This document shows positions 9,495 through 61,256 of a stretch of 64,000 nt of DNA, piece by piece. The stretch comes from an uncultured Gammaproteobacteria bacterium. GTDB taxonomy: Bacteria; Patescibacteriota; Patescibacteriia; SBBC01; CAIJZX01. Position numbers and translations under genes: made by a program. Numbering within the stretch: position 1 is the stretch's first letter; each line of letters starts with the position of its first letter. Under the pieces are notes generated by a model. It made no database searches. It worked only from the letters and a program-made list of their open reading frames with translations, and was not told the DNA's origin. The stretch covers positions 1,218-65,217 of the forward strand of contig CAYGGC010000006.1 in assembly GCA_964349465.1 (NCBI GenBank), in the 5' to 3' direction.

Positions 9495-9539
9495 GGGTTT
9501 AGAAAGCAAAGCCACTAGCGGGCTTTGCTTTCTAAACCC
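9495..9539. repeat. perfect 19-bp-stem inverted repeat (GGGTTTAGAAAGCAAAGCC-N7-GGCTTTGCTTTCTAAACCC)
   Basis: Seen directly in the sequence. It lies in the divergent intergenic region next to the primase operon. Confidence 0.8.
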
Positions 9540-10021: not shown

Positions 10022-10234
10022 ATGGAAAAAGAACCATACAAGCCCACTGTTCTTCCAGCGAAAGAAGATCCGGCGAATCCCGATAACTGGGAATACGATG
10101 CTAATATGCAAGGTTTTCCCGGGCAGGTTTATTCTCGCAAGCTGACAGAAAAACAGAAGGGCTGGATAGTTATTGCAAAGATTACTTTTTGGGGAGTTTT
10201 GGCGTGGACTATCATTAAGTATCTAATTCTATGA
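10022..10234 (+). CDS. small membrane protein
   Basis: 70 aa with a C-terminal transmembrane helix; island cargo. Confidence 0.4.
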   Translation: MEKEPYKPTVLPAKEDPANPDNWEYDANMQGFPGQVYSRKLTEKQKGWIVIAKITFWGVLAWTIIKYLIL

Positions 10235-10440
10235 AAAAACATCTTTACTATTTAGTTGGAATTACAGTCCTAATTTTTGCGATTGGCTATTTGTTTTCAC
10301 AATATATAGCCTACAAGCAGTTTCGCCTATCACAAGAGAAAGCGATACAGGATTGTGTAGAAAAGACTATTGGAACAAATACCGCTGGCTTCATTGCTTC
10401 GAATGCAAAACAAAAGTGTGTGGAAAAGTTTTCCCAATAG
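10231..10440 (+). CDS. small membrane protein
   Basis: 69 aa with an N-terminal transmembrane helix. Its start overlaps the upstream stop (ATGA). Confidence 0.4.
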   Translation: MKKHLYYLVGITVLIFAIGYLFSQYIAYKQFRLSQEKAIQDCVEKTIGTNTAGFIASNAKQKCVEKFSQ

Positions 10441-10586
10441 TTTTTATTGGCTGGAAGGGGTTGCCCCAACGGGCATCCCTGTTAGCGACAAAAAAGTATC
10501 CACAGATACCCTCTTTGTTCGTTTTTGTGGTAAAATAGATTTAGATAAAAATAGGCCAATTTAAATATAAAACTGGGCGATTTATT

Positions 10587-11186
10587 ATGACTACCAACGA
10601 TAGAATCATACGTAGCGCCCTAAAGAAGAAACTACAAGAAACGCACAAAGACGATCCTAAGCTAAGGATCGTTGAGGAGTTGGGCGTTAAACATGGGGCT
10701 GCCAGAGTTGATATTGCTGTTATCAATGGAGTTCTGCATGGTTATGAAATAAAAAGTGATCGGGACACCTTGCTTCGTTTACCTGAACAGATGGCTGCAT
10801 ATAATTCTGTTTTTGATCAAATAACTTTAGTCGTTGGGAAAAGTCATTTGCATGAAGCAATAAATGTTGTTCCGGATTGGTGGGGGATTACGATTGCAAA
10901 GATTGATTCAGCTAACGTCGTTGTTTTTAGCTGTATACGTGAAGCGAAAAAAAACCTTAAGCAAGACACTATTTCCATAGCAAGGCTTTTATGGAAAGAT
11001 GAGGCGCTAGAAATTTTAGAAGAAGCTGGTCAAGCGGATGGAATTCGCTCAAAAACAAGGGGCTTCATATATGAAAGGTTGTCTGAAGCATTCGATCAGA
11101 AGATTCTCCAAGAAAAGGTTAGAAACGTATTATTTTTTAGGGAAGGTTGGAGATCTGATTCGCCACTAGTACTAAATGGTGGTTAA
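10587..11186 (+). CDS. sce7726-family-like protein (PD-(D/E)xK-like motif)
   Basis: The block ELGVKHGAARVDIAVINGVLHGYEIKSDRDTLLRLPEQ matches my recollection of the sce7726 family, which pairs with sce7725/Beta proteins. It has the D..E.K spacing of restriction-like nucleases. Confidence 0.45.
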   Translation: MTTNDRIIRSALKKKLQETHKDDPKLRIVEELGVKHGAARVDIAVINGVLHGYEIKSDRDTLLRLPEQMAAYNSVFDQITLVVGKSHLHEAINVVPDWWGITIAKIDSANVVVFSCIREAKKNLKQDTISIARLLWKDEALEILEEAGQADGIRSKTRGFIYERLSEAFDQKILQEKVRNVLFFREGWRSDSPLVLNGG

Positions 11187-12264
11187 CACCGGCGCGTAAC
11201 CAAGTTCGCGGGCTACCCGTGTTTGGCGTATCAACGTCTTCACCTTTTTCTGCTATGTACGCATCGCCGTAGCTAAAGCCTTTGCCCTTGTACTCTGGCT
11301 GACTCATAAGTAGTTGCGCATGAGAAGGATATTGAGAGTGCCCGGGGCCTTCATTCCCATCCTTGTCTATTTTATGCAGAGCCTCGCCTCGCATGATTAC
11401 CCACTCGCTTTCACCAGAATATCTTATACTAGCGCTCGGATTTGCTTCTGGATTTGGCTCAGTATAGATTGGGTGCTGGATTGTGTAATCAGCAAATGCG
11501 GGTTTTCTTTTTTGTGTTCCCGAATAAATCTCTTTCAACCAGTAAGCCCAATCAGAGCGAGGAATCCTATAAGTGGCGTGTGGGCTAAAGCGAGAAAGGT
11601 CGAAAGGAAATGCCCCCCCAGCGACCGTAAACGTTCTCCATCGTATAAGGTCGGGGATATTATTAATAGATTTAACGATTTTGGAATATTCTTCTTGAGG
11701 CATACCCTCCACGAGTTCAAAGTCGACTAAGAGGTCGACTTGTTCGTGTTTGAGATCATTTCTTTTTATAAACTCATTAATACTTGTAGCAAGCTTATTA
11801 GAAGAGAGATCAGCACGTAGTATTCTCAAGCATACACCACTTTCGTATTGCTTTATTATTTTTATGATCGTGCCTTCAACATCTATATCGCTATTTATCC
11901 GAATAACGGGAATAACTCGAGAGCCGATAGCAGGTCCTTTACTCATGATTTCTGTGTAGCCCCACTTTTGCAGCGCCCCGCTTGTCAGAAGATTAAGGTC
12001 AATGAATATTGGACTATTGCCCCAATACTTCAGTATTTCTTTTGGCAGGTTGGGTAATGTCCCCTTTAACTTCTCAATAGATTGAGTCTTATACTCTTCA
12101 GGAGTTTTTTTGGCCTCCCCCCTTTTTAATCTTTTACGGGCGGGCATTATTAACTCTAGTAAAGGCGTGATTATTAGCCTGTCTTTTTCAGTAAGCTCTT
12201 TTAAGGCCTCTTTTTCAGCGGTTTTCCACCGCAATATTGGTACGTAGTGTTTTGCGTCAAACAT
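11137..12264 (-). CDS. Beta-protein family (sce7725-like) protein
   Basis: The N-terminus HYVPILRWKTAEKEALKEL...ITPLLEL matches my recollection of the Beta_protein/sce7725 family. The ATG overlaps the stop of the upstream HTH-ImmA gene. Confidence 0.5.
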   Translation of the reverse strand: MFDAKHYVPILRWKTAEKEALKELTEKDRLIITPLLELIMPARKRLKRGEAKKTPEEYKTQSIEKLKGTLPNLPKEILKYWGNSPIFIDLNLLTSGALQKWGYTEIMSKGPAIGSRVIPVIRINSDIDVEGTIIKIIKQYESGVCLRILRADLSSNKLATSINEFIKRNDLKHEQVDLLVDFELVEGMPQEEYSKIVKSINNIPDLIRWRTFTVAGGAFPFDLSRFSPHATYRIPRSDWAYWLKEIYSGTQKRKPAFADYTIQHPIYTEPNPEANPSASIRYSGESEWVIMRGEALHKIDKDGNEGPGHSQYPSHAQLLMSQPEYKGKGFSYGDAYIAEKGEDVDTPNTGSPRTWLRAGVNHHLVLVANQISNLP

Positions 12265-12265
12265 A

Positions 12266-13495
12266 TTATTTAGTAGGCCATTTAATATCTTGGAAATAAT
12301 CTCTAACTTTTGCCGCATTTGTAATCGCATTTAAGTTTGGAGATTGATAGCGCTTATGTTTATGCATCATTATTCCAGTAACAATAGCCACGTTAATCCC
12401 AAGCTCATCGGCTAAACTTTGTGCCGCAACTGGTGAGGGTACTCTTTTTGCAGGACTTTTTTCCCATTTGTCATTAGGTAGCAGAGCTTCTCCTGCTAGC
12501 ATGTCTGCCTCGGTTTCCTTCGTATCAATCTCCGCGCCCCCTACCCCTTCAATCTCATCGTAGAATAGGTTGATATTTTTATCGAAGTGCAAGGCAATGT
12601 GAGCCAGTTCATGCATTAAAGTAAACCAAAAGTTATCTAGTCGATCATATCTAACTGTTAGACCAATGACAGGGTTATCTTTATTTATTAAGATTGTTGC
12701 CCCATCTAAATAGGTTTTAGTTAAATGAGGCGCAATAACAAGTTTAATCCCAAACTTTGTTAAGTATTGTTGAGCCACAATAGGGCTTTTTTCTTTCGTA
12801 CTTAACTTTGCCATTTCTCTCATAAAAGCTAGATTTACAGCTCCATTCTTGTATTTAACTGGAACCTTCACCTCCTCAGATTTTTTTAAGATATATTCAG
12901 ACCATGCCGCAAGCGCGCGTTTGTCAGTTAAAAGAGAAGATCGATAATGAGATTGTCGTGGCATTCCGGCAAGTTGGAACTCAGGGCCGATAACTGAAAA
13001 GAAGTTTCTTAGTAGTTTTTCTTTATTTGAGACATCTAATCTACCTCGCCCAAAGTAACCACGTTCTGACATTTCTCTAATTACGCGAGTATCCCAGCCA
13101 CTATAAAGCGCGTTTTCGCTTTGGTCAGGTTTTTTGAGAAGAACTTTCGCCGGAATACCTAAGCCGGCCTCCAATAATCTAATCATGTCGAGTGTAAGCG
13201 TTCTTTTTCCAGAAAGAATTTCTGATACTCTACTTCTGCTACCTAGATAGGGGATTAGATCGGCAGGTGTCAAATCCGCTTGCTCCATTCGGAATTTAAT
13301 GGCTTCGACAGGATCGGGGAGTGTTGCAGAAAAAGCTTTAGCTTCGTAGTCAGCTACAAGAGTACTTAGAATACTAAGTTGTTCTCCTTCTTGTGATTCA
13401 GGATCAGGATCACCAGCCATAAGCGCCTCAATAAATTCGAGCGCTTCTTGGTAGTCTCTTTCAGTTCTTATTACTTTAATGTCAGGCATGGTCAT
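12266..13495 (-). CDS. HigA-type HTH antitoxin fused to an ImmA/IrrE-family zinc metallopeptidase
   Basis: The N-terminal ~120 aa look like HigA (IKFRMEQADLTPADL...SRVSEILSGKRTLTLDMIRLLEAGLGIP). The C-terminus has the HEXXH motif HELAHIALH. Confidence 0.75.
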   Translation of the reverse strand: MTMPDIKVIRTERDYQEALEFIEALMAGDPDPESQEGEQLSILSTLVADYEAKAFSATLPDPVEAIKFRMEQADLTPADLIPYLGSRSRVSEILSGKRTLTLDMIRLLEAGLGIPAKVLLKKPDQSENALYSGWDTRVIREMSERGYFGRGRLDVSNKEKLLRNFFSVIGPEFQLAGMPRQSHYRSSLLTDKRALAAWSEYILKKSEEVKVPVKYKNGAVNLAFMREMAKLSTKEKSPIVAQQYLTKFGIKLVIAPHLTKTYLDGATILINKDNPVIGLTVRYDRLDNFWFTLMHELAHIALHFDKNINLFYDEIEGVGGAEIDTKETEADMLAGEALLPNDKWEKSPAKRVPSPVAAQSLADELGINVAIVTGIMMHKHKRYQSPNLNAITNAAKVRDYFQDIKWPTK

Positions 13496-13500
13496 ATTGG

Positions 13501-13788
13501 CTATTTAATTTGCCACTTGTCGTATTCTTTATGGGTACCAACTTTTTTGATAAGCACCACCCCAGTCTTATAAGCGATTCTCACCCATATCCGATACTTG
13601 TTCCAGCAAATGTCGAAGATTGCTTGTAGGTTGCCCGGTAGGCTAACCCGGGGGTATTTATTTCGGACATCTTGAGGTGTTTTCCATTCAGCAGCCTCGA
13701 CTTCTGCCTCCCAAGATTCGAGCTGCGATCTGGCATCAGCATGCTCTTCCCCAAAATCGCGCAGTTGTTGTTTTCCTAGTAAGTTCAT
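13501..13788 (-). CDS. higB: type II toxin HigB (RelE/ParE fold)
   Basis: LRDFGEEHADARSQLESWEAEVEAAEWKTPQDVRNKYP...ICWNKYRIWVRI...VGTHKEYDK matches the HigB toxin family. The gene is trimmed to the internal Met (MNLLGKQQL). Confidence 0.75.
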   Translation of the reverse strand: MNLLGKQQLRDFGEEHADARSQLESWEAEVEAAEWKTPQDVRNKYPRVSLPGNLQAIFDICWNKYRIWVRIAYKTGVVLIKKVGTHKEYDKWQIK

Positions 13789-14253
13789 GATACGTAGTAG
13801 TGGAGTAGTGTACATTAAGACCGTTCCCATGGTGGGAACGATACCAAATGTACAAAGTATTGTCAATAGCCCCGTAATTGGGGGTGTGTGGGCATAGTCG
13901 GGGAACCTTTTTACGAGTATATACCCTCTAAAAAGAATCCCATTTTTTGGACTGGGGGTCATTCTACAGGCACTGATCGTACGATTCTGCCCTGTAGGCT
14001 ACGGCTCACGATGGCGCGCTCATAGCGAGGCGCAGGGAGCCTTATGGTAAAGGCGAAGGGTATCAGTTTTGCCGATGTATCGGCATGGTCATGTCGTGCT
14101 GTACTCGAACCATGCCGATTTTGAATGACATAGAGGCCCCGATGGTAGCATGGGGTTGACGAAGACTCAAGAGAGGAGTATCGATAGAGAGGACGGACCC
14201 CCCGGCTCGTCTTCGTCCCTTTCGTTCGCGTCCCTATTTCCAAGGAGCTGGAA

Positions 14254-22661: not shown

Positions 22662-23264
22662 TCAGCAGCCGCCGAGGCCGAGCGTGATGAGCATCAGAAT
22701 GACGTAGATCACGACGTAGGTGGTTCGCTCGTTCCGGATCGAGAACGAGTATTCGTTGCGGCGATCGTCGAGATCCTTGGGAAACAGCACGTATTTCCTG
22801 GTCTTGGTCTTGTCCGGGCCCTCGGTTTCTTCGGCGAGGATCCGGCGGGGGATGAAGTTCTGCCCCCAAATCCAGAGGAAGACGCAGGTGAACACTGTCA
22901 TGAAGATCAAAGCCAGGCTGAGTCGGATGGCCTGCACGCCAAGAACTTTGAAGGCGACGATCCACATCGTGAATGTTCCGACCTTGGTGTTGGCGAACTT
23001 GTTGGCGTTGTCGGTGATGGCCGACAACGAACCGTTCACGGCTTCACCGACTTCCTTGCCGAGGCCGGCATACTTGCCGACCTGCTGGACCTGATCCGCC
23101 ACCTGGGTCACCTGTTCGACCGTCTGGGCGGCTTTGACCTTGGCCATTTGCTCGGGAGTGAGCAGTGACTTGTCGACGACGACCTTGTTGGCGTCCTGCG
23201 CGAAAGCAGCCGTCGTGACGGTCAGGAGCGTGACGGCGACCAGAGCGATTCTCGTCAGCTTCAT
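22662..23264 (-). CDS. exported membrane-anchored hypothetical protein (GC3-outlier gene)
   Basis: It has a signal peptide (MKLTRIALVAVTLL) and C-terminal transmembrane helices, with GGAGG upstream. The ORF is trimmed from a 429-aa antisense read-through. Its codon bias is extremely GC3-rich. Confidence 0.6.
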   Translation of the reverse strand: MKLTRIALVAVTLLTVTTAAFAQDANKVVVDKSLLTPEQMAKVKAAQTVEQVTQVADQVQQVGKYAGLGKEVGEAVNGSLSAITDNANKFANTKVGTFTMWIVAFKVLGVQAIRLSLALIFMTVFTCVFLWIWGQNFIPRRILAEETEGPDKTKTRKYVLFPKDLDDRRNEYSFSIRNERTTYVVIYVILMLITLGLGGC

Positions 23265-23489
23265 AGAAAGAGCCTCCTGGGAAGAGTTCCGGATCCTTAT
23301 CCGGAACGGGTGGACAACGTTCTGACCGAAGTTCCCTACCTTCGTCAGACCAAGTCTTTTACCAAAAAACCCGTGAAATGTCAAGGCGAATGAACAAAAA
23401 AGGCATACATATGCTATTCTATTGGTGTAACTCGGTTCGACTAACAAGATAGAGCCCAAACCACCGAACCGGCGAAAATCACATTTTTC

Positions 23490-24047
23490 ATGATCCAACC
23501 AGACGAAGAATTGGTGGCGGCGGCCCAAACCGGAGATCATACAGCTCTGTCGACGTTGTATGACCGGCATTTTACCCAGTTGTACCGCTTTATCTACCGC
23601 CACGTGAACCATGTTCATGATGCGGAAGATCTGGCGAGCGACGTTATGCTCCGCATGGTCACCCATCTGCCATCCTATCAACGCCAGTCCTCGTTTACGA
23701 CCTGGCTTTACGGTATCGCGCGCCACGCCATCGCCGATTTTTGGCGCAAGCACTACCGCGTGCGCGAACAACTCGTGGCGGATTATGCCGCGATTGGGGC
23801 GACAGGGGAGCCGGTTGATATCGTGCCGATGACCGAACATGATCCGGCGGAACAACTGCGCCGACAAGCCGCGGATGTTTTTGAGCAGCTGCCCGCGAAT
23901 TATCGCCTCGTCCTGCAACACCGCTTCATCGACCAGCAAACGCTCGAACAAACCGCGTCAGCAATGCAAACCACAGTTGGAAACGTCAAAGTCCTACAAC
24001 ATCGCGCACTAAAAAAAGCCGCCGAAATCGCCAAACATATCGTCTAA
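23490..24047 (+). CDS. ECF-type RNA polymerase sigma factor (sigma-70 regions 2 and 4)
   Basis: Region 2 (DLASDVMLRMV...FTTWLYGIARHAIADFWRK) and region 4 (LVLQHRFIDQQTLEQTASAMQTTVGNVKVLQHRA). Confidence 0.8.
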   Translation: MIQPDEELVAAAQTGDHTALSTLYDRHFTQLYRFIYRHVNHVHDAEDLASDVMLRMVTHLPSYQRQSSFTTWLYGIARHAIADFWRKHYRVREQLVADYAAIGATGEPVDIVPMTEHDPAEQLRRQAADVFEQLPANYRLVLQHRFIDQQTLEQTASAMQTTVGNVKVLQHRALKKAAEIAKHIV

Positions 24048-31176: not shown

Positions 31177-32943
31177 TTAGGCGTCGATAATAACCGGGAG
31201 AATCAGCGGCTGACGCTGGGTCTTCGTAAAGATGAATTTTTCTAAGGTTCGGCGGAGTTTATCGCGCAGGTCCTTCTCGTCAGGTTTGAGTCGTGGCTCG
31301 CGATCACTTAACGCTTTTTTGGATTGACTAATGAGCTCACCGATGAAGCGACCCTGTTCTTTCATGTGTGTCAGACCGCGGGAGATCACGTCCACCTTGC
31401 CGACTTTGCCGGTTTTGGCGTTGATCTGCGCGACGATGATGACCATGCCGTCACCCGCGAGTTGTTTACGGTCCCGAAGAACCAGTGCGTTAACGTCACC
31501 AATTCCCAAACCGTCGACGAAAATATATTCGATCGGAATGCGTTTGTTGGTCACGAAGGCTTGGTTGTTTGCCACTTCAACGGTCTGGCCGTTATCGGCA
31601 ATCAAAACATTCTTGTCGGGAATGCCAGCGCCGACCGCAATTTTTTTATTCTCCAAGAGTGAACCGTAGTTACCCTCGATCGGCATGAAGTATTTCGGCT
31701 TGATCAGTCGAATAAAATCGGCGATGTCTTCTTGTTTGGCGTGACCGCCGGCGTGAATATCTAGCATTTTCGAGTCGATGATCGACGCACCTTCACGCAG
31801 GAGTCCGTCCTTGAGGCGGGTGACCGCACGATCGTTACCCGGGATGACGGAGGACGAGAAGACGACCAGGTCGCCGCGTTCAATCCGGAGATATTTATGC
31901 TCGCGGTTCGCGATGCGCATCAAGACCGCGTTATCTTCGCCTTGGGCGCCGGTACAGAGGATGAGGTAGCGATTGGCCGGAAGTTTCTTCGCTTCTTCCC
32001 AGGTTACAATCGTGTTTGGCTTCACCCGAATGTACCCGAGTTGTTTTCCAATTTCGATATTCGTGCGCATCGAAAAACCTTCAACCAGTACTTTTCGGTT
32101 GTGCTTTTCGGCGGCACTGAGGACTTGCTGGACGCGGGAGAGGAGGGAGGCAAAGGTCGCGACAATCATCCGGCCCGGCGTGTTGGTGAACATCAGCTCA
32201 ACGTTTTTTTCGACTTCTTCTTCCGAGACTTGATGGCCTGGCGCGTACGAGTTCGTCGAGTCGCACATGAGGACGGTAATATTTTTCTGACCGAGGGTTT
32301 GGATAAAGTCGATATCCGTCCGGTTGTTGATATGCGCGTGAGCATCAAGCTTAAAGTCGCCGGTATGGACGACGCTGCCGCCCGGGGTTTCAATCACGAC
32401 GCCCATGCTGCCAGGAATATTGTGCGACAGACTGAAAAATTCAATCCGAAAGGCACCGAGGCGAATGCGCTGGCGACTGCGGATCGGGTTGAGGCGCAGA
32501 TGTTTTTCTGGCGCGACATCTTCCATCTTTTTCTTCAACATCGCGCAGGTCAGATCCGAAGAATAGATCGGCGGGTTGCCGAGTTTCGGGATCCAGTGGG
32601 GGACGCCACCGGTGTGGTCGTAGTGACCGTGGGTAATAATCACCCCACGAATCATTTTTTCCTTCCCCTTGAGCGAATTGAGGTCGGGGATAATATAATC
32701 GACGCCTGGCATATCTTCCTCTGGCCATTGCAGCCCGAGGTCGATCAACAACAGTTCCTTGTTGTATTCCAACAGGGTACAGTTTCGTCCGCCGGTTTCT
32801 TCGTTACCGCCGATCGGGGTGATCCGGAGAACGTTGTGGTGCTCACTCGGAGCCCGTTCGCCCTCTTTTGGTTTAGGTTCGGGCCGGCGGGTATACCGCG
32901 GTCCGTCTGGTCGGCGCATGCGCGCCTTTGGCCGTTTAGCCAT
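31177..32943 (-). CDS. rnj: ribonuclease J
   Basis: Metallo-beta-lactamase motif ITHGHYDHTGG plus beta-CASP and a C-terminal domain. It has a basic N-terminal extension. Confidence 0.85.
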   Translation of the reverse strand: MAKRPKARMRRPDGPRYTRRPEPKPKEGERAPSEHHNVLRITPIGGNEETGGRNCTLLEYNKELLLIDLGLQWPEEDMPGVDYIIPDLNSLKGKEKMIRGVIITHGHYDHTGGVPHWIPKLGNPPIYSSDLTCAMLKKKMEDVAPEKHLRLNPIRSRQRIRLGAFRIEFFSLSHNIPGSMGVVIETPGGSVVHTGDFKLDAHAHINNRTDIDFIQTLGQKNITVLMCDSTNSYAPGHQVSEEEVEKNVELMFTNTPGRMIVATFASLLSRVQQVLSAAEKHNRKVLVEGFSMRTNIEIGKQLGYIRVKPNTIVTWEEAKKLPANRYLILCTGAQGEDNAVLMRIANREHKYLRIERGDLVVFSSSVIPGNDRAVTRLKDGLLREGASIIDSKMLDIHAGGHAKQEDIADFIRLIKPKYFMPIEGNYGSLLENKKIAVGAGIPDKNVLIADNGQTVEVANNQAFVTNKRIPIEYIFVDGLGIGDVNALVLRDRKQLAGDGMVIIVAQINAKTGKVGKVDVISRGLTHMKEQGRFIGELISQSKKALSDREPRLKPDEKDLRDKLRRTLEKFIFTKTQRQPLILPVIIDA

Positions 32944-33904: not shown

Positions 33905-33991
33905 TGGTGCCCAGAAGAGGACTCGAACCTCCAATCCCTTGCGGGAACTAGCTCCTGAAGCTAGCGCGTATACCAATTCCGCCATCTGGGC
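33905..33991 (-). tRNA. tRNA-Leu(CAG)
   Basis: A manual fold gives a 7-bp acceptor stem, anticodon loop UUCAGGA, a long variable arm, T-loop GGUUCGAGUCC and an encoded CCA. Confidence 0.8.
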
Positions 33992-36114: not shown

Positions 36115-37926
36115 TTATAGCTGTTCGCGAAGAAGGTGGGCTTTCTTTGCTCCAATTGTTGAGCGTAACTCGTCATCCGACGCGGCCCGAATGTTTTCAA
36201 TCGTTCGGAAAGTACGAAGAAGTTTTTGACGGGCGTCGGCCCCTAAGCCGGAAATGTCGTCTAAGATTGAGCGCGTCGTTTCGGCGCGGTGTTTTTTGCG
36301 GTAGAAGCCGATCGCAAACCGATGCGCCTCGTCCCGGATCCGTTGCAGTAAAAAGAGTTCTTGCGATCCGGCGGGAAATCGTAGAGGCGTTTTTTTATTT
36401 GGTAGAAACAACTCCTCATGTTCTTTTGCGAGCGCGGCGAGTTGGACGTTCTCAGCCAATCCCGGCACCTGTTTGATGACCGTCGAGAGCTGTCCTTTAC
36501 CGCCGTCGAGAATAAGGAGATCGGGGAGCGGCCAAGCATCTTTTTCCTGAGCAGCGATACGTGATTCAGCATCGATCACAACATCTTCGTCCGCTCCTCC
36601 TCGACGAGCAAAGCGGCGACGCAGGACTTCGGCGAGACGGTGTTGGTCGTCGGGAATCTTCGTATCGCGAATCGTGAATTTACGATAGTCAGATTTTTTT
36701 GGTATACCATTTTCAAAAACAACCATGGATCCGACGACGTTCGTGCTTTGGTTATGAGAAATATCGTACATCTCGATGCGTTTTGGCGGTTCGGTGAGAT
36801 TCAGGGCACGGGCTAACTCAGCGAGGGCGAGTGTCGCCTTGGCTTCTTCGGATAGCCAACGGTCGCGTTCGCGTTGCAAATAATCTTCGGCGTTAGCGGT
36901 GCCCATCGTGACGAGTTTCTTTTTGAGACCGCGTTGAGCTTGATGCAAGCGAAGTTGCAAGGCCTGGCCAAGGTCGTTCGGGAGCGCGACCGGCGCGTAC
37001 ACATCGGTCGGGTGATTGGTCGACTGACTGTAATATTGCTCGACGAAGGCAGTCAGCACTTCGGCATCAGTTCGGCCTTGGACATGCTGCAGCATGAATT
37101 GATCGCGCTGCACGAGTTTACCCTGGCGAACCTGGAAAAGATTGACGGTGGCGAGCGTTGCAATCCGGGCGAGCGCTAGGACATCAAAGTTTTCACGCTT
37201 GGTGGTGATCACCGTTTGTTGTTCGAGGATATGATCGAAGGCTTGCAGTCGATCGCGTACTATTGCAGCTGTTTCAAAATCACGTTTTTTCGCGGCGGTC
37301 TGCATATCTTTCTTCATCTGCTTCAACAGGTCGCCCGTCTCACCTTCAAGAAAGCGGATAAGTTTTTTTATCACCACCAGATAGCGCTCGTGGCTGCCCG
37401 GACCAGTGTCGTGGCCTAAACATCGCCCAAGCTGAAAATCAAAACAGGGGACGTCTGGTTTGTTATTGCAGGTTTTGAATGGGAATAGTTTTTTTAGGAG
37501 CTTGAGCGTTCGTCGAACCGCAAGACCTGATGTGTAGGGTCCAAAATATCGCGCCCCATCGAGCGAAATACGTCGAACGGTGCTAACTTGGGGCCAGTCC
37601 GTCCCGAGCGCGATTTTAATGTATTGAAAAAACTTATCGTCTTTCAGGAGGACGTTATACTTTGGTCGATATTTTTTTATCAGTGTTGACTCAAGGAGCA
37701 ATGCTTCCGTTTCGGTCTTGACCAGGATATGTTCGATCCGTCGAATCTCGGACAGCATGATGACTTTGGCGGGGGAGAGGCTGTGGGATTTTTGGAAGTA
37801 TGACGAAACGCGAGAACGGAGGTTTTTTGCCTTGCCAACGTAAATTATTTCGTCGTTATCCGTGTGGTAGAGATAGACGCCGGGATTTTTCGGAAGTGAC
37901 CTTGCAATCGGGAGAAACTCATTCAT
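36115..37926 (-). CDS. uvrC: excinuclease ABC subunit C
   Basis: GIY-YIG domain (PGVYLYHTDNDEIIYVGKAKNLRSR), a UvrBC domain and C-terminal HhH motifs. Confidence 0.9.
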   Translation of the reverse strand: MNEFLPIARSLPKNPGVYLYHTDNDEIIYVGKAKNLRSRVSSYFQKSHSLSPAKVIMLSEIRRIEHILVKTETEALLLESTLIKKYRPKYNVLLKDDKFFQYIKIALGTDWPQVSTVRRISLDGARYFGPYTSGLAVRRTLKLLKKLFPFKTCNNKPDVPCFDFQLGRCLGHDTGPGSHERYLVVIKKLIRFLEGETGDLLKQMKKDMQTAAKKRDFETAAIVRDRLQAFDHILEQQTVITTKRENFDVLALARIATLATVNLFQVRQGKLVQRDQFMLQHVQGRTDAEVLTAFVEQYYSQSTNHPTDVYAPVALPNDLGQALQLRLHQAQRGLKKKLVTMGTANAEDYLQRERDRWLSEEAKATLALAELARALNLTEPPKRIEMYDISHNQSTNVVGSMVVFENGIPKKSDYRKFTIRDTKIPDDQHRLAEVLRRRFARRGGADEDVVIDAESRIAAQEKDAWPLPDLLILDGGKGQLSTVIKQVPGLAENVQLAALAKEHEELFLPNKKTPLRFPAGSQELFLLQRIRDEAHRFAIGFYRKKHRAETTRSILDDISGLGADARQKLLRTFRTIENIRAASDDELRSTIGAKKAHLLREQL

Positions 37927-37995: not shown

Positions 37996-38024
37996 TTGAC
38001 TTTTTAGGACAAAGGGCGTATTCT
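37996..38024 (+). promoter_or_regulatory. sigma-70-like promoter (TTGACT-17-TATTCT)
   Basis: The -35 and -10 hexamers have ideal spacing, upstream of the 38188 gene. Confidence 0.45.
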
Positions 38025-38187
38025 AGCTGGTCTTACTGGAGGGTCGTACCCGATGTCTTCAGTCCGACAGACGGTTCTTTTACAACCTCTAGTGAAGCAA
38101 ATTTCCTGGATCGACCAGGGAAGTAGTACTGTGCGACTCCACCATTCGCCACGCACCACGACGGTGTCTGGCAAGGGAGGTACCCAC

Positions 38188-39192
38188 ATGTCCACCTCGT
38201 ATCTGCTGCCTTATGCTCCGAAGCTCGACAAGATCGCGGCCCTCTACATCCTGCTGACGTACGTCAAGCCGGAACAGCTGAGCGACGCTGCCATCGTCTT
38301 CCACACTGCGGATCAGCCGCTGCCCGAAGACTTCATCGACGTGGATGCCGTCTCCGATTACAAGTCAGCCGGCTACCGCACGGCGACGCAGCGGATCGTC
38401 GATGACGAGCCGTACAAGCATCTCAACCTCCGGTCGATTCCCGGCATGGACCACTTCGTCAGCCGGTTCGATCTGAACAACTCGAACGGGTCGCTGAAGA
38501 ACCGGTTCGCTTCGAACCTGTTCAACCTCGTCAACGATTGGCCGCGGGTCGGACATAACGTCCCGCGCCATGAGCACATGATGGAGGTGATCGAGACGGT
38601 TTTCGGGGTCTTCGATCACTACTTCGTGGCGGCGGAGTTCAACGCCGTCGCCATCAACTCGATCGAGAACCCGTTCTGCCTCTCGGGCATCAAGGAATTG
38701 GAGTTCGTGACCAACCAGGTCTTCGTCGAGCAGGTCTGCGACGAGATCGAGCACCTGCTCGCTCGGACCAGCAAGGCTGATGGCCAGACCCGCAAGCGGG
38801 CCGAAGCGATCAAGCCGGAACTGGTCTTCGAGGTTCCGACGAAGGGTGACCAGATGGTCGGCGGCGCGGTCTACCGGACCGACGATCGTCGGATGTCCCG
38901 GCACCTGTTCGATCTTCATCCGGAGACCCACGTCTTCGTGATGAAGCACCGGACCGGCAACGCGGTCATCATGACGCGGGGTCAGCAGAACCTCACCGCG
39001 CTCGCGCAGAAGCTCAATGAGCTCGAGCCGGGCCTCTGGCACCACGAGACGCGGTACAAGTCGCCGTTCCTCGCGAACGGTGGCGAGACCCGCTCGGTCA
39101 CGCCGACGGCCCTCACGGCGTCGCAGCTGCGCAACCTGATCGTCGAACACTTCCGCTATGCCACCCGTTCTCAGGACATGATCGTCCGCTAG
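38188..39192 (+). CDS. degenerate DHH-like paralogue (GC3-outlier gene)
   Basis: GGAGG RBS upstream. Its N-terminal (KLDKIAALYILL) and C-terminal (NGGETRSVTPTALTASQLRNL) blocks parallel the downstream gene, but the catalytic H/DHH residues are replaced. It has extreme GC3 codon bias. Confidence 0.6.
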   Translation: MSTSYLLPYAPKLDKIAALYILLTYVKPEQLSDAAIVFHTADQPLPEDFIDVDAVSDYKSAGYRTATQRIVDDEPYKHLNLRSIPGMDHFVSRFDLNNSNGSLKNRFASNLFNLVNDWPRVGHNVPRHEHMMEVIETVFGVFDHYFVAAEFNAVAINSIENPFCLSGIKELEFVTNQVFVEQVCDEIEHLLARTSKADGQTRKRAEAIKPELVFEVPTKGDQMVGGAVYRTDDRRMSRHLFDLHPETHVFVMKHRTGNAVIMTRGQQNLTALAQKLNELEPGLWHHETRYKSPFLANGGETRSVTPTALTASQLRNLIVEHFRYATRSQDMIVR

Positions 39193-39288
39193 GAGGACTC
39201 AAGCTTAAACTAGAGGTTCAGCCCACACATGCAACACTGTGTGGGCTTCCTCTTTTTTTCAAACCGAATCAAGAGTATACTGAATCCA

Positions 39289-40377
39289 ATGGAACCAATA
39301 CCAATTTCAAAAATCATTCTCTATCCGCGACCACACGTCGATAATATTGCGGCGTTATTTTTGTTACGAGAATTTGGTTTGGCGGCCTTTCCGGGGATTG
39401 AAACCGCGGCGTTAGAATTTTGGCCGGTTGTCCCGCCCGGAAAAACGCCGGATGAATACGAAGCGGAAGGAGTATTGTTTGTCGACCTTGGTGGCGGTCG
39501 TTTTGACCATCATCACGACGAACATCAACCCAACGTTGCTAAAACGACCGCCGCCCAACTCGTGGCCGAGCACCTTGGTCTCGCCGATCAACCGGTCTTG
39601 AAACGTCTCTTGGAGTTCGTACGACGTGACGACGTTGAAGGACGGGGGATTATTTCGAAGGATCCGCTGGATCGAGCTTTTGGATTACCGGCGATCATCA
39701 TGAACCTGAATCGAAACTATCCGAAAAATCCAGAATTTGTCGTCGATCTCGTCACGCGGATTTTTCAATCCTGGTATGCCGAAGAGTATCGCCGGAAAGT
39801 GCTGATGCCGCAGGAGTGGGCCGAGTTGCAAGCGAACGGCCGAGCGCAAAAAATACACATCCCGACATCGGTTCGTCCGCTGACAGTGGTCGCAATTGAA
39901 TCAGATTCGCCGACGATGGTTGGGTTTTTACGCGCGGTCGGCGATGTCCAGGCGGACATTGTTATCCAGCGAATGTCGAGCGGCCACACGAATATTGTGA
40001 CGAAACAAGATCGCGATCGGACCATGGCGAAGCTCAACATCGGACCACTGGTGAGCGCGGTCCGTTCGGCTGAAGCGGCGAAAAAAGGATTAGCCTTGCC
40101 GGCCGATGTCGATCTCGCGAAGCCAGGACGAATTGAGGGACTAGAGGAGTGGTATTTTGATACGGCCGCAAATACACTCCAGAATGGCGGGGCCGCAAGC
40201 CAGGGCATTTCACCGACGCACTTGAGTATTTCTGAACTTGTTGAACTCTTGCCTATGGCGTTAGCCGATGCGGTTCCAGCCGAACGACCGCGGAACGATC
40301 GTCGCTCTCAAACCGGTCCTCAGGTCTTGCGTTTCTCGGATTTGCGTCGTCAGCCGCCGGTCGGACCAGCGGCATAG
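39289..40377 (+). CDS. DHH-motif phosphoesterase-family protein
   Basis: Motif I-like PHVDNIAALFLL and motif III FVDLGGGRFDHHHDEH. Its codon usage matches the host. Confidence 0.55.
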   Translation: MEPIPISKIILYPRPHVDNIAALFLLREFGLAAFPGIETAALEFWPVVPPGKTPDEYEAEGVLFVDLGGGRFDHHHDEHQPNVAKTTAAQLVAEHLGLADQPVLKRLLEFVRRDDVEGRGIISKDPLDRAFGLPAIIMNLNRNYPKNPEFVVDLVTRIFQSWYAEEYRRKVLMPQEWAELQANGRAQKIHIPTSVRPLTVVAIESDSPTMVGFLRAVGDVQADIVIQRMSSGHTNIVTKQDRDRTMAKLNIGPLVSAVRSAEAAKKGLALPADVDLAKPGRIEGLEEWYFDTAANTLQNGGAASQGISPTHLSISELVELLPMALADAVPAERPRNDRRSQTGPQVLRFSDLRRQPPVGPAA

Positions 40378-40464: not shown

Positions 40465-43434
40465 ATGGCCACTCCGCGCCGTTCGAAATCCGTTTCGGTC
40501 AAGACAACGCCTACCACGAATGTGATTCGTGTCCGCGGCGCCCGTGTTCACAATTTAAAAAATATCTCGGTTGATATTCCCCGCGAGAAACTCGTCGTGC
40601 TGACCGGACTTTCCGGTTCGGGAAAATCATCGTTGGCTTTTGATACAATTTACGCGGAAGGCCAGCGCCGGTACGTCGAATCCTTATCCGCTTACGCGCG
40701 GCAGTTTTTGGGCTTAATGGATAAGCCGGATGTTGACCAGATTGACGGACTTTCTCCGGCAATTTCGATTGACCAAAAATCGACCTCGCATAACCCGCGC
40801 TCGACGGTCGGGACAGTCACCGAAATTTACGATTATTTACGTTTGTTGTACGCCCGCGTCGGTATTCCTCATTGTCCAAAATGTGGTCGGATCGTGACCA
40901 AACAATCGATTGATCAAATTGCCGATCAAATTTCAAGCCAACCCAAAGGAACTAAAATTGCCTTACTTGCGCCGGTTATTCGGGACCAAAAAGGAGAGCA
41001 TAAGCACGTCATGGCTGATGTCCGGAAGGCTGGTTTTGTTCGCCTGCGGATTGATAAGAATCTCTACTCGCTTGATGAAGCAGAGGACCTCGCGCTTGAT
41101 AAACAAAAGAAGCACTCGATCGAAATTGTCATCGATCGCTTAACGATGGGTGTTGATGATAAAGAAAAAGGGGAGCATGATCGTACGCGATTGTATGAGT
41201 CGCTTGAAACCGCGCTTGATTTGGGCGATGGGCTGGTGATTGTGACCCGCGAGGGTGCCGATGATTTGTTATTTAGTGAGCATTTTGCCTGCGCCTATGA
41301 CGGCACCAGCTTACCGCCGATCGAACCGCGCAACTTTTCCTTTAATAATCCCCACGGCGCCTGTGCCGACTGTACCGGACTCGGAACGAAGCTTGAAATT
41401 GATCCGGACCTCGTTATTCCGAACCGTCGTTTAAGCATTGCCGAGGGTGCGGTTCGCCCTTGGTCACGAACGAGTTCGAACCAAACCTGGTATTATCGTG
41501 TCTTGGAAGCGGTGGCGAAAGAACAGGGCTTCTCGTTGAACGTGCCGGTCGATAAAATGAAACCGGCTGATTTGGAAATCATTTTGAATGGCACAGGTGA
41601 CCAAACCTACGACGTCAATAATTTGTCCGGAGGTGGTAAAGTTCGAGAATTCTTTACGACGTTTGAAGGCGTCGTGCCAAATCTCTTACGCCGCTATAAG
41701 GAAACAGAATCCGACTATATGCGCGCGGAGATTGAGCGCTATATGCGAGTTTTTCCTTGCCCGGCCTGTAAAGGAAAGCGGCTTAAACCGGAAGCGTTAG
41801 CAGTTAGCGTTAGCGATAAAAACATTGCTGATGTCAGCATGATGAACATCGCGAAGGCGAGCGAATTTTTTACCGCACTCAGCGGCGATGAAAAATCAAC
41901 CGGTGTGAAAGCGCTCACAACGCGCGAGATGAAAATCGGAACGCAGATTCTCAAAGAAATTCGCGCGCGGTTAACGTTTCTCCGCAATGTCGGCCTGGAC
42001 TATTTAACACTCGATCGCGCCGCGTCGACGCTGGCGGGTGGTGAAGCTCAACGGATTCGCTTGGCAACACAGATCGGTTCCTCGTTAGTCGGCGTGATCT
42101 ATATTCTTGATGAACCGTCCATCGGGTTGCACCAGCGTGATAATGACAAGCTGATTGATACCTTGGTGAAACTGCGCGACCTCGGAAATACTGTCCTCGT
42201 GGTTGAACACGACGAGCAAACCATGTTGGCCGCCGATTATTTAATTGATATTGGCCCGGGGGCGGGGGAGCATGGTGGCCAAATTGTGTCCCAAGGTACG
42301 CCGGCTGAAGTGATGGCCGATCCGAACTCCTTAACTGGGAAATATCTGTCCGGCAAGTCGATGATTATCCCGCCGACCAGTTATCGCAAGGGGAACGGCA
42401 AGTCGATTGATATTTACGGCGCCGAAGAATTCAATTTGCAACAGGTTGACGTTTCGATTCCGCTCGGGAAGTTCGTCGCAATTACGGGCGTTTCTGGTTC
42501 CGGAAAATCGACGTTGATGACCGATATTCTCGCGCGCGCTCTGAAGCAGCATTTCTACAATGCCAAAGATTTGCCGGGGAAGCACAAAGACATCAAAGGC
42601 TTCGAACATTTAGATAAAGTCGTTGATATTGACCAAAGCCCAATCGGACGGACGCCGCGTTCAAACCCAGCGACGTACACCGGCGTTTTTACGGCGATTC
42701 GTGACCTCTTCACCCAAGTTCCCGAAGCGAAAATGCGTGGATATGGCCCAGGTCGTTTCTCTTTCAACGTGAAGGGCGGCCGGTGCGAGGTTTGCGAGGG
42801 CGATGGCGTCGTTCGGATTGAAATGCAATTTTTACCGGACGTCTATGTTGAGTGTGAAGAATGTAAGGGTCAGCGTTACAATCAACAAGCACTAGAAATC
42901 AAGTACAAAGGTAAGACGATCGCGGAAGTGTTGAACATGACCGTTGAAGAATCGATGCAATTTTTCACCCATATTCCGGTCATCCACCAAAAACTCAAAA
43001 CGCTTCATGAAGTCGGTCTCGGATATATCCATCTTGGTCAATCAGCAACGACATTGTCTGGTGGTGAAGCGCAGCGCGTGAAACTTGCCACCGAATTATC
43101 CCGCCGTGCGACTGGCCGAACTCTTTATATTCTTGATGAGCCGACGACCGGGTTGCATATTGATGACGTGAAACGCTTACTCCATGTGGTGCAGCAACTT
43201 GTTGATAAGGGCAATACTGTGTTGGTGATCGAACACAATCTTGATGTGATTAAGTCGGCCGATTGGATTATTGATCTTGGCCCTGAAGGCGGCGATGGCG
43301 GTGGAAAGATTGTGGCCAGCGGAACGCCGCGCGACGTCGCCAAAACGAAAACGCATACCGGGAAGTTTTTGGCAGAGATGTTAGCCGCTGACGCGACCAA
43401 AGAAAAAACCGCCGGGCGTAAGCGGGGCGGTTAG
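40465..43434 (+). CDS. uvrA: excinuclease ABC subunit A
   Basis: Two ABC ATPase modules ([14 protein letters not shown] and [10 protein letters not shown]) and zinc-finger Cys clusters. The start is uncertain; the longest ORF begins at 40399. Confidence 0.9.
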
Positions 43435-43655
43435 GGAGATTCCGGTTTTTCGGGAACGGGGGGTGGGCGGCTGCTGACCAGCGCGCGCCGATTTTCTTCC
43501 TGAATGCGGGCGTAGATTTCCTCGCGGTGAACCTTGACGTCGGGGGGAGCCTCGATGCCGAGCTTGACCTGGCCCGAACGGACCTCGAGGACGACGATCT
43601 TCACCGCATCACCGATGCGGATATTTTCACCCAGTTTCCGAGTGATGACCAGCAT
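43431..43655 (-). CDS. csrA: carbon storage regulator CsrA
   Basis: [25 protein letters not shown]...[19 protein letters not shown], with GGAGGT upstream. Trimmed from a 138-aa ORF. Confidence 0.8.
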
Positions 43656-44750: not shown

Positions 44751-45641
44751 CTATGCGGTAATACTGACCGAGAGCTCGGGCATTGACGAAAGGTACTGAC
44801 GGAGCGCGTTGGTCCAGGGCCGGAGTTGCGGACCACGGTTGTTCTTGAGTCCGCCGTTCGGGTTGCGCAGGATCCAATTCTCCATGTCCGACTGTCGGCA
44901 AGCCTCGACCCGACCAGCCAGCCCAGCTGCTTCGAGAATTGCCCTGGTCATTTCTAGACGGGAGACGGGCGGACCGTTGACGGCGTGGTACGTGCCTTCA
45001 GCGGTCGGATCCTCGATCAGCTCGCCGGCCGCGTAGGCGACGTCCGGGGCGTAGCACGGGCAAGCGACATAATCCGTGAGCGCCGTGATGAGGTTACCGG
45101 CTACGGCCTGAGTGACGACGTCGCGGACGAAGTTCTGCCGCGTCGGGTGGTCTCCGAATAGCCACGACGTCCGAATGATCATCGATCTCGAGTAGCGCCG
45201 GAGGAACGTCTCGGCGTCGGCCTTTGTGCGTCCGTAGACCTGCGTCGTCCGAAACACGCCGTCGAGATCATCGCCTTCATGGTGCTGGTAGAACGACGAG
45301 GTCCGATCGTCCATGAAGACCTGATCGGAGCTGAAGTAGACGAAGCGCCCGTTGACCCGTGAGCAGAGGTTCGCGAGCAGGAATGGGACGACGACGTTGA
45401 GGTGCTCGGCCGTGCCGGGGTTGAGGTCGCACTTGGCGATCTCGGTGTACCCCGCGGCATAGACCACGACGCCGTCCGGATGGCGGGCGAGCCAGGGTCC
45501 GACGAAGTTGTTGACCCGCGACAGATCGAAGAGGTTGACGTCATTCCGTCGGGGCGCGCAGATCTCCCATCCGCGATTACCAAACTCGCGCAGGAGATGC
45601 GAACCAAGGAGACCGGTGCTGCCGAACAAGAGAATCTTCAT
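44751..45641 (-). CDS. dTDP-4-dehydrorhamnose reductase-like NAD(P)-dependent SDR (GC3-outlier gene)
   Basis: Rossmann motif MKILLFGSTGLLG and a YxxxK-type catalytic region, with GGAGGA upstream. GC is very high. Confidence 0.65.
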   Translation of the reverse strand: MKILLFGSTGLLGSHLLREFGNRGWEICAPRRNDVNLFDLSRVNNFVGPWLARHPDGVVVYAAGYTEIAKCDLNPGTAEHLNVVVPFLLANLCSRVNGRFVYFSSDQVFMDDRTSSFYQHHEGDDLDGVFRTTQVYGRTKADAETFLRRYSRSMIIRTSWLFGDHPTRQNFVRDVVTQAVAGNLITALTDYVACPCYAPDVAYAAGELIEDPTAEGTYHAVNGPPVSRLEMTRAILEAAGLAGRVEACRQSDMENWILRNPNGGLKNNRGPQLRPWTNALRQYLSSMPELSVSITA

Positions 45642-45751
45642 ACTTCCTCCACATGGAGTAGGGTGGTGGGGACGTAAAAAGGGCGGAAAACGTAGACGGA
45701 CCCTACGGAAAATATAGGCGATTGTCAATGGGCTAAGGATAATCTTGACCA

Positions 45752-45778
45752 TTAGCACTCTCTGGTATAGACTGCTAA
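45752..45778 (+). promoter_or_regulatory. CIRCE operator (TTAGCACTC-N9-GACTGCTAA) overlapping a TTGACC/TATAGA promoter upstream of groES
   Basis: It differs from the CIRCE consensus TTAGCACTC-N9-GAGTGCTAA at one position, and sits in the classical spot ahead of groES-groEL. Confidence 0.7.
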
Positions 45779-54269: not shown

Positions 54270-54357
54270 GGAGGGTTCGCATAGTGGCCTAGTGCATACG
54301 CTTGGAAAGCGTACATACCGCAAGGTATCGAGAGTTCGAATCTCTCACCCTCCGCCA
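54270..54357 (+). tRNA. tRNA-Ser(GGA)
   Basis: Manual fold: acceptor GGAGGGU/ACCCUCC, a 3-bp D-stem, anticodon loop UUGGAAA, a long variable arm, T-loop GAGAGUUCGAAUCUCUC, discriminator G, and an encoded CCA. Confidence 0.8.
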
Positions 54358-61181: not shown

Positions 61182-61256
61182 TGGCTCCGGGGGTGGGATT
61201 CGAACCCACGACCAATGGATTAACAGTCCACTGCTCTACCGCTGAGCTACCCCGGA
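61182..61256 (-). tRNA. tRNA-Asn(GUU)
   Basis: Manual fold: acceptor UCCGGGG/CCCCGGA, D-arm AGCUCAGCGGUAGAGC, anticodon loop CUGUUAA, T-loop GGGUUCGAAUCCC, and an encoded CCA. Confidence 0.85.

Follow-up and report, generated by a model that had tools for sequence, protein, structure and literature searches.

The DNA analysed here is a 64,000-nt stretch of contig CAYGGC010000006.1 (the window) from an uncultured bacterium, and the subject of the analysis is a pair of open reading frames (ORFs) on the same strand, designated gene 1 and gene 2 and located between uvrC and uvrA. An earlier note on this DNA had taken the pair for tandem paralogues, the upstream one being a degenerate, xenologous copy strongly biased towards G and C at third codon positions. 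All coordinates lie within the window, and GC3 denotes the G+C fraction at third codon positions. The four genes of the locus were:

38188..39192, + strand: gene 1, 334 residues, DHH/DHHA1-like fold in which DYK, NN and GN replace DHH, DD and GH, GC3 0.83
39289..40377, + strand: gene 2, 362 residues, DHH/DHHA1-like fold with the conserved motif set, GC3 0.53
36115..37926, − strand: uvrC, divergent from gene 1, with a GIY-YIG N-terminus and 61–67% identity to neighbours bearing UvrC Pfam domains
about 40465..43434, + strand: uvrA, 81–82% identity to neighbours with UvrA Pfam domains

Identities of the flanking products to neighbours with UvrC or UvrA Pfam domains were 61–88% overall, which confirmed the placement of the pair between these two genes. 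The start of gene 1 was set at the ATG at 38188, with a Shine-Dalgarno (SD) sequence GGGAGG 8 nt upstream. A longer ORF beginning at 38053 would cross a conserved non-coding leader, and all homologues share the start equivalent to 38188. The 362-residue product of gene 2 has a 100% identical entry in the protein database. Named homologues and the single GTDB match place the organism in Patescibacteria, near Candidatus Kerfeldbacteria.

BLASTP comparison of the two proteins was not significant (E 0.37), the identity between them being about 20%. Profile-profile comparison (hhalign) was significant: a 7-sequence gene 1 profile aligned with the gene 2 family (33 sequences) over 108 C-terminal columns (probability 89%, E 2e-6), and a 22-sequence profile of gene1-like proteins did so over 273 columns (probability 99.4%, E 9.9e-22). 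The N-terminal blocks PKLDKIAAL (gene 1) and PHVDNIAAL (gene 2) and the C-terminal blocks NGGETRSVTPT.L (gene 1) and NGGAASQGISPT.L (gene 2) were mutually aligned in the latter, as the earlier note had paired them by eye. The hidden Markov model (HMM) of gene1-like proteins gave matches of 1e-15 to 1e-21 to gene 2 proteins, and both profiles fitted some sequences about equally. An exhaustive search of 1.84 billion proteins with the gene 1 profile returned 111 cluster representatives (E ≤ 1e-3), many of which also matched the gene 2 profile, and at least 177 homologues of gene 2 were found. Judged from the profiles, gene 1 and gene 2 are genuine, full-length and ancient paralogues, whose families split deep within Patescibacteria. 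The claim of paralogy was thus upheld at the profile level, and that of a recent tandem duplication was not, given the low identity and the deep divergence.

Models computed with AlphaFold2 were confident (pLDDT of 86.6 and 88.9 for genes 1 and 2, respectively) and showed the same order of secondary-structure elements. Foldseek searches of the PDB with the gene 2 model gave an uncharacterised Helicobacter pylori protein (6mtz) as the top match, together with RecJ and the C-Ala (DHHA1-like) domain of alanyl-tRNA synthetase (AlaRS). The gene 1 model also matched 6mtz best (4e-5), followed by PPX1 (2qb6, 1e-4, probability 1.00); further matches were the DHH domain of Pyrococcus PF0399 (5yh1), a family II pyrophosphatase (PPase; 1wpm), the AlaRS C-terminal domain (2zvf), GdpP (5xsp) and DhhP (9r7o), the match probabilities being 0.77–1.00. 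Both models have the two-domain DHH plus DHHA1 fold. Weak, inconsistent and sub-threshold matches to ChrB_C, DUF6715 and DUF6687 were dropped. The family MYG1/UPF0160 had become a candidate from a presumed resemblance to its DxGG..FDHH pattern; no support for it was found, and there was no match to PF03690.

Gene 2 retains a DHH-type motif set, as had been claimed for it. Its product carries FDHHHDEH, and among the 33 family members D18, D66 (in DLGGG), D73-H74-H75, D114, D125 and D128 (in DRAFG) are invariant, giving motif III together with acidic residues of motifs I, II and IV. Other invariant or nearly invariant positions are R113 and D115, flanking D114, as well as G232-H233-x-N235 and Q298-N299-G300. 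Motif I is a single Asp instead of DxD, and GH stands where DHHA1 domains have GGGH. In gene 1, D57-Y58-K59 aligns with D73-H74-H75 of gene 2 and is invariant in 7 orthologues, N97-N98 aligns with D114-D115, and G257-N258 aligns with G232-H233; D14 (D18 of gene 2) and D53 (D66 of gene 2) are retained. Neither a DHH motif nor a His of the DHHA1 GGGH type was present in gene 1 in this alignment, so that the reported loss of these residues was correct and the proposed lack of catalysis is plausible in the sense of a non-hydrolytic protein. The description of gene 1 as degenerate did not hold, since its family comprises 111 representatives with invariant motifs of their own (GSAT, NNxxGxLKN, NDWPR, WHHETRYKSP and NGxExR) and a confidently predicted fold. 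On its sequence, gene 1 appears to be a conserved protein lacking canonical metal/His chemistry and not a decaying gene.

Several gene 2 homologues of 514–550 residues (P0125, P0093, P0097 and P0122, the last at L014 6001–7545) carry an additional N-terminal domain of approximately 180–220 residues with two HxT/HxS motifs. Sub-threshold matches to the 2H phosphoesterase family PF13563 (E 9e-5 to 4e-3) were obtained for 4 of 6 long homologues, and this fusion to a domain resembling 2′-5′ RNA ligases and cyclic phosphodiesterases points to RNA-end or nucleotide phosphoester metabolism. Among gene1-like proteins, P0129 (513 residues) was observed to carry the C-terminal, DHHA1-like domain twice, with the second copy at residues 360–488 (local HMM, E 1.5e-34).

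The tandem was surveyed in 13 loci, the pairs being confirmed with local HMMs. A gene1-like gene lay directly upstream of a gene 2 homologue in 11 of them (the window and L001, L004, L006, L008, L009, L010, L011, L013, L015 and L016). A genome scan with the gene 1 profile gave a single match, in a Kerfeldbacteria metagenome-assembled genome (L007), which corresponds to L004. In the Kerfeldbacteria-like clade the pair is always located between uvrC and uvrA, and gene 1 occupies the same position in all eight related lineages recovered, so its presence is not patchy as it would be after recent transfer. In L011 the pair adjoins recO/ileS and in L013 a PMT gene and Rrf2-iscS, neither having a uvr context; the uvr neighbourhood was accordingly rejected as a clue to function. 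Long-term retention of the tandem in such different neighbourhoods suggests a functional partnership. No matches to the gene 1 profile were found in JGI metagenome contigs or IMG/VR viral contigs.

The codon signature reported for gene 1 was reproduced. GC3 is 0.832, with third positions of C 0.47, G 0.40, T 0.10 and A 0.02, compared with 0.533 for gene 2, and gene 1 ranks first among the 38 ORFs of the window (mean 0.55, standard deviation 0.10). The eight syntenic orthologues, which share 33–66% protein identity, have the following GC3 values for gene 1 and for its flanks (uvrC, gene 2 and uvrA):

Window: gene 1 0.83, flanks 0.53–0.54
L001: gene 1 0.94, flanks 0.50–0.55
L004: gene 1 0.74, flanks 0.44–0.50
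L006: gene 1 0.93, flanks 0.69–0.71
L008: gene 1 0.92, flanks 0.67–0.74
L010: gene 1 0.84, flanks 0.65–0.71
L015: gene 1 0.97, flanks 0.77–0.87
L016: gene 1 0.93, flanks 0.55–0.56

All eight orthologues thus stand at 0.74–0.97, in hosts whose GC3 is 0.45–0.87. G+C at the first (GC1, 0.57–0.70) and second (GC2, 0.375–0.435) codon positions is similar to that of the neighbours, so the atypicality does not extend to all codon positions. The shift is equal for codons ending in a pyrimidine (NNY, to C) and in a purine (NNR, to G), and the effective number of codons (Nc) is near the value expected from GC3 alone. Along gene 1, GC3 is 0.80–0.95 in each window of 40 codons. In the codons of uvrC and gene 2 next to it GC3 is immediately down to 0.40–0.68, and the G+C of the untranslated regions (UTRs) is 0.38–0.54. 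In more distantly related gene1-like genes the excess is small or absent (0.62 in L009, 0.70 in L011 and 0.63 in L013). Extreme GC3 is therefore a conserved attribute of the clade orthologues, limited to synonymous sites and to the ORF.

Translational selection was rejected as the cause, both because the NNR shift to G is as strong as the NNY shift to C and because highly expressed markers (EF-P, groEL/ES and S16) lie near or barely above their genome means (EF-P 0.65, groEL 0.73 against about 0.67, S16 0.50). Also rejected was an antisense ORF of 261 residues (38365–39150, − strand), which lies exactly in the reverse-codon frame and in L010, L011, L009 and L013 is interrupted at differing positions; this frame is open only because TTA, CTA and TCA are nearly absent from gene 1, in which A-ending codons are avoided. 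As for a foreign origin of the signature, synonymous sites have turned over many times among orthologues of 33–66% identity, and a donor signature would have ameliorated. The GC3 excess does not reflect recent import, and xenology fails to explain a signature carried by all eight orthologues whatever the host GC3, with host-like GC1 and GC2.

Raised GC3 was recorded for a few other genes. It is 0.71 in csrA (43431–43655, − strand), just downstream of uvrA, 0.85 and 0.63 in csrA of L001 (11298–11633) and L004 (11453–11731), and not raised in that of L010 (0.65). A 429-residue protein with no Pfam match (22662–23951, − strand) has GC3 0.72 and folding z scores, as defined below, of −3.5 (1008 nt) and −1.8 (first 720 nt); an RmlD-like reductase (44751–45758, − strand) has GC3 0.75 and a folding z of about 0.

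Gene 1 is preceded by its own promoter and a long leader and is followed by a terminator. The features of this transcription unit, and the putative −10 box of gene 2, were:

37996..38024, + strand: gene 1 promoter TTGACT-17-TATTCT, from a consensus scan (9/12 match)
38031..38187, + strand: structured 5′ leader of gene 1, approximately 157 nt, recognised from conserved alignment blocks, with the transcription start site inferred from the −10 box
38084..38093, + strand: leader block A, AACCTCTAGT, 5′ arm of a long-range pairing found by inverted-repeat search
38116..38191, + strand: leader element burying the SD sequence and start codon, with an outer helix of UCAUG..CUCC and GGAG..CAUGA and an inner covarying hairpin (RNAalifold)
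39209..39218, + strand: block A′, ACTAGAGGTT, partner of block A as the 3′ arm of that pairing, 17 nt past the stop codon
39220..39257, + strand: gene 1 intrinsic terminator, made up of a 10-bp stem (6 of its pairs G-C) and then a T-run
39276..39281, + strand: putative gene 2 −10 box TATACT, ending 7 nt before the ATG

The promoter had been noted before, and its hexamers and spacing proved to be conserved as TTGACx-17-TATxxT in 6 aligned loci, being seen in L015 and L016 as well. An equivalent hairpin and T-run follow gene 1 in all other loci, and TATACT or CATACT is found at the same distance before gene 2. By these signals gene 1 is an independent transcription unit. A TATACT −10-like box also lies 8–13 nt before the ATG of uvrC (37905–37926), and in both uvrC and gene 2 such a box ends 7–13 nt before the start with no SD sequence (the window, and equivalent positions in L001–L016). 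This suggests that the uvrC and gene 2 mRNAs are leaderless, unlike that of gene 1 with its long leader and strong SD sequence.

No Rfam family matched the leader at the gathering threshold or at E ≤ 1. In 11 leaders, the 16 pairs of the SD-sequestering element (the helix of UCAUG..G..CUCC with GGAG..C..CAUGA around an inner hairpin) were 88% paired, compared with 33–46% when the partners were slid, and double changes were found in 10 of the 16. The covariation score was 0.41 compared with 0.07–0.12, and none of 500 shuffles scored as high. A covariance model of this element matched only the leaders of gene1-like genes in 187 kb.

A second pairing joins the two ends of the transcript. A leader block is perfectly complementary, over 7–14 bp, to a block located 0–19 nt past the stop codon in each of the eight loci, and the blocks (leader / post-stop) were:

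Window: AACCTCTAGT / ACTAGAGGTT
L001, L006, L008, L015 and L016: CCTCTTCC(AT) / (AT)GGAAGAGG
L004: CTTCTCCTT / AAGGAGAAG
L010: CATCTCCTTCGGTT / AACCGAAGGAGATG
L011: GCTTACGC / GCGTAAGC, likely a fifth variant at the same positions

In a position-anchored exact-complement test, p was 0.0002–0.026 per locus and 4e-10 by Fisher's method over four independent variants, and the long-range helix was part of the minimum free energy (MFE) structure of the whole 1.2-kb transcript in 7 of the 8 loci. The complementarity between leader and 3′-UTR therefore exceeds chance, with compensatory change, in 8/8 loci. When whole leaders were compared with tails by RNAduplex, shuffled sequences scored as well. 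An RNA closing helix is favoured over a DNA inverted repeat because complementarity is kept while sequence, length and spacing vary, and because all assemblies share one orientation with no recombinase nearby. Just after block A, a hairpin CCUGG/CCAGG (38105–38119) was seen by eye, and seems, also by eye, to covary across lineages (GAGCGC/GCGCUC, GAGUG/CACUC and CGAGCG/CGCUCG).

Folding of the ORF itself was evaluated from summed local MFEs against within-gene shuffles of synonymous codons, in which protein and codon usage are fixed. All eight gene 1 orthologues were more stable than their shuffles, with z scores of −5.7, −3.2, −2.8, −1.9, −2.9, −3.9, −2.4 and −4.0; in runs of 60 shuffles, z was −4.2 for the window and −4.4 for L001, with none of the 60 as stable. 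Orthologues of gene 2 gave −1.0 to +1.6, and other high-GC3 genes +1.0 to −1.4, save one at −3.5. The excess supports, suggestively, selection on mRNA structure. A gene1-like ORF of a Parcubacteria-group contig (L013 4908–5900), with GC3 0.63 beside a gene 2 neighbour of 0.375, was observed to have a z of −10.8.

Trees were built from few taxa by a distance method (neighbour joining, Kimura-corrected distances, 300 bootstraps). The uvrC, uvrA and gene 2 trees grouped L001, L004, L006 and L008 to the exclusion of the window (86–100%) and joined L006 with L008 (96–99%). The gene 1 tree joined the window with L004 (100%) and L001 with L006 (100%), leaving L008 outside these four (98%). The conflicting splits are thus supported at 96–100%, an incongruence with the flanks of the kind expected from transfer; gene 1 identities are uncorrelated with those of the flanks (rho 0.10–0.16), and gene 1 evolves faster than its neighbours. 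As the trees stand, gene 1 alleles would have been replaced between related lineages at a fixed locus. The part of the xenology claim that concerns lineage history is to this extent sustained (98–100%), and the phylogeny of the high-GC copy does conflict with its flanks within the clade. A recent high-GC donor as the source of GC3 is not sustained, every allele in every host carrying the excess.

Taken together, the pair is read here as an ancient DHH-fold pair in which gene 1 is a non-hydrolytic partner and its GC3 is upheld mainly for a closed, gated mRNA, a reading to which we give slightly better than even chances as a whole. Gene 2 would be a phosphoesterase that depends on metal and has nucleotides or RNA-derived molecules as its substrates. 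Gene 1 would not be a canonical DHH hydrolase and may serve gene 2 as a subunit with a binding, regulatory or partner role, by analogy with Cdc45-like scaffolds, or alternatively as an RNA- or nucleotide-binding derivative. The GC-rich wobble positions would be kept mainly to build a very stable mRNA, closed end to end and translationally gated; such a closed gene 1 mRNA is probably long-lived, and allelic replacement between related lineages would also occur at the locus. Selection on RNA structure as the keeper of GC3 is our leading guess. A stronger form is more doubtful, though possible: that the synonymous sites of gene 1 were taken over throughout the clade for a hyper-stable, closed mRNA of approximately 1.2 kb encoding the histidine-less partner of the active paralogue, GC3 being the footprint of selection on mRNA architecture (lifetime, or gated and possibly termination-coupled translation) and not of foreign ancestry or mutation bias.

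Several observations weigh against this interpretation. Regarding the proteins, no match to DHH (PF01368) or DHHA1 (PF02272) was found among 33 gene 2-family members even at E ≤ 10, and Pfam, NCBIfam and PDB sequence searches with both proteins and approximately 60 relatives gave no match above threshold. The HMM scoring that the earlier note had proposed as a check thus gave no support, neither protein reaching the Pfam DHH/DHHA1 or NCBIfam models, and the relation is one of fold and motif. The Foldseek TM-scores are low (0.2–0.36) because the domains are oriented differently. Motif IV of gene 2 was assigned by position only, and the metal site is putative. The wider gene1-like branch keeps D14 and D53, and some of its members keep one His or the GH, so a different chemistry for this branch is possible. 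In two Uhrbacteria loci gene 2 occurs with no gene 1 beside it. Regarding the mRNA, the folding signal is noisy, the first 720 nt of gene 1 giving a z of only −1.95, and the 36 other ORFs of the window have a mean z of −0.57 (standard deviation 1.14), two of them reaching −3.1 and −3.5. Selection for RNA stability might also be expected to raise GC1 and GC2 where residues are variable, which is not seen, and the conflict of the gene 1 tree with its flanks keeps explanations of GC3 by recombination alive.

As far as GC3 is concerned, the main rival is a GC bias linked to recombination, or else the repeated import of alleles from relatives of high GC. The locus would be a hotspot of allelic exchange among Kerfeldbacteria, and the excess a by-product of GC-biased gene conversion or of repeatedly acquired alleles from high-GC relatives such as L015; we regard this as unlikely. 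The strongly supported splits of the gene 1 tree (98–100%) against those of the flanks (86–100%), the faster evolution of gene 1, the symmetric preference for G and C in NNR and NNY codons with Nc near expectation, and the existence of high-GC members of the clade (L015) all agree with it. Bacterial genes that recombine are reported to be higher in GC3, with non-optimal codons driving the rise (PMC4450053); in our reading an excess of +0.10 to +0.44 seems very large beside that effect. Replacement through flank homology should leave tracts, whereas the boundaries at the ORF are sharp, with no gradient in the codons of uvrC and gene 2 or in the UTRs. Nor are GC1 and GC2 raised despite many weakly constrained residues, and in a host of 64% GC gene 1 still exceeds its neighbours (0.97 versus 0.77–0.87).

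Another explanation concerns the protein. Gene 1 could be a fully active enzyme with a re-tooled site (D14, D53, Y58, K59, N97, N98 and R255) that works independently of gene 2, their adjacency being only that of an old duplication. Polar residues are strongly conserved where the active site used to be, which is consistent with this, as are the separate promoters with a terminator between the genes and the marked difference in regulation, gene 1 having a gated leader and gene 2 an apparently leaderless mRNA. The tandem order, however, has been kept across deep divergence and in unrelated contexts, and gene 1 has lost both DHH histidines and two aspartates, residues that serve as metal ligands in characterised DHH enzymes. 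An independent enzyme of this kind is likewise improbable.

Much less likely still is that the complementary blocks belong, as DNA inverted repeats, to an invertible or mobile cassette serving phase variation or cassette exchange, instead of an RNA helix. Inverted repeats of 7–14 bp do bracket exactly the leader and ORF with the promoter outside, the history of gene 1 is incongruent with its flanks, and gene 1 has a long stop-free antisense frame. All recovered gene 1 loci (the window, L001–L007, L008, L010, L015 and L016) nevertheless have one orientation, no recombinase is found at the locus, and the repeats vary in sequence, length and spacing with complementarity kept, as RNA helices typically do and recombinase sites do not. 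In L010, L011 and L009, where codons ending in A are more frequent, the antisense frame is interrupted, and the helix was recovered in whole-transcript thermodynamic folds of 7/8 loci.

A recent xenologue from a high-GC donor, retaining donor codon usage and decaying beside the native copy, fits the highest GC3 in the window (0.83 versus 0.53), the lost catalytic histidines and the incongruent tree, and is largely refuted, to the point of being barely credible, by the excess shared among the syntenic orthologues of 8 lineages (33–66% identity) across varied host GC3, by host-like GC1 and GC2, by the conserved motifs and confident fold, by the conserved promoter, leader and terminator, by the lack of mobility genes at the gene 1 locus, and by the lack of homologues in viral contigs in the scan with the gene 1 profile.

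Elsewhere in the window, a low-GC island was observed at 5085–13962, with GC3 of 0.31–0.46 compared with about 0.55 elsewhere. It contains a large serine recombinase (5085–6788), a D5-N/DUF5906 primase-helicase-like gene (7754–9187), a gene with helix-turn-helix (HTH) and IrrE/M78 peptidase domains (12266–13495), and a full-length LOOT RNA motif (RF03000, 9824–9947, 87.7 bits), and it resembles a mobile element that has integrated, or the remnant of a prophage. Matches to Rfam RF00005 marked three tRNA genes, at 33908–33991 (− strand), 54270–54354 (+ strand) and 61185–61256 (− strand).

Gene 1 and gene 2 represent two unannotated sister families that are widespread in Patescibacteria and share the DHH/DHHA1 fold, one with active-type motifs and the other histidine-less, and both are candidates for the nucleotide or RNA salvage chemistry on which reduced genomes depend. 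They may form a natural pair of enzyme and pseudoenzyme. Gene 1 also provides a clean counter-example to the equation of atypical GC3 with horizontal transfer, its signature having been inherited with the gene across deep divergence. If the RNA-structure reading is true, the locus would offer a tractable case of synonymous-site selection over a whole ORF, combining a 5′/3′ closing helix with an SD-sequestering leader, for which there are very few bacterial precedents.

Among known systems, the closest for the proteins is the DHH/DHHA1 superfamily (RecJ, NrnA, GdpP/DhhP, family II PPase and PPX1), of which both families are an unannotated, Patescibacteria-restricted branch. Two domains joined by a long helix and the Foldseek matches of both models are shared with it, as are, in gene 2, the motif I-like Asp, the motif II-like DxGGG, the DHH of motif III, D..DRAFG, and GH at the place of GGGH. 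The present proteins differ in giving no profile match, in the single-Asp motif I, in a large helical insertion, in a family-specific C-terminal W..D/E..NGG..PT, and, for gene 1, in lacking DHH and GH. Inactive DHH paralogues can act as partners or scaffolds, as do eukaryotic Cdc45 and archaeal RecJ-like proteins with degenerate DHH motifs. Like these, gene 1 has kept the fold but not the metal-binding His and Asp residues, and it persists under purifying selection beside relatives that are active. Unlike Cdc45-type proteins, nothing ties it to replication; conserved adjacency alone suggests its partner, and its inactivity is presumed.

For the mRNA, a 14-bp pairing of the 5′-UTR with the 3′-UTR in Bacillus subtilis hbs modulates attack by RNase Y/J1 (PMC5737220), and the 3′-UTR of Staphylococcus aureus icaR pairs with the SD region (PMC3868564); both are precedents for the control of decay and translation by such a pairing. 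Gene 1 resembles these in its monocistronic mRNA and short leader-to-3′-UTR helix of 7–14 bp, with SD-like and anti-SD-like sequences involved, and in that this organism encodes RNase J (31177–32943). It differs in that the 3′ arm lies 0–19 nt past the stop codon, that the SD sequence is buried by a separate, second leader segment, and that the ORF is GC3-extreme and over-structured; the helix is supported here by covariation across lineages and not by experiment. Genes of atypical composition ascribed to transfer or GC-biased gene conversion (PMC4450053) are comparable in having GC3 far above their neighbours and an incongruent tree, whereas the signature of gene 1 is conserved across deep divergence, synonymous-only and bounded by the ORF. 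Its excess also looks much larger than we would expect from the recombination effect of that paper. The proteins are thus new branches of a known fold, and inactive DHH paralogues and 5′/3′-UTR pairings have precedents; what is unusual is the combination, above all a clade-wide, single-gene GC3 of 0.74–0.97 that is tied to the gene and not to the genome.

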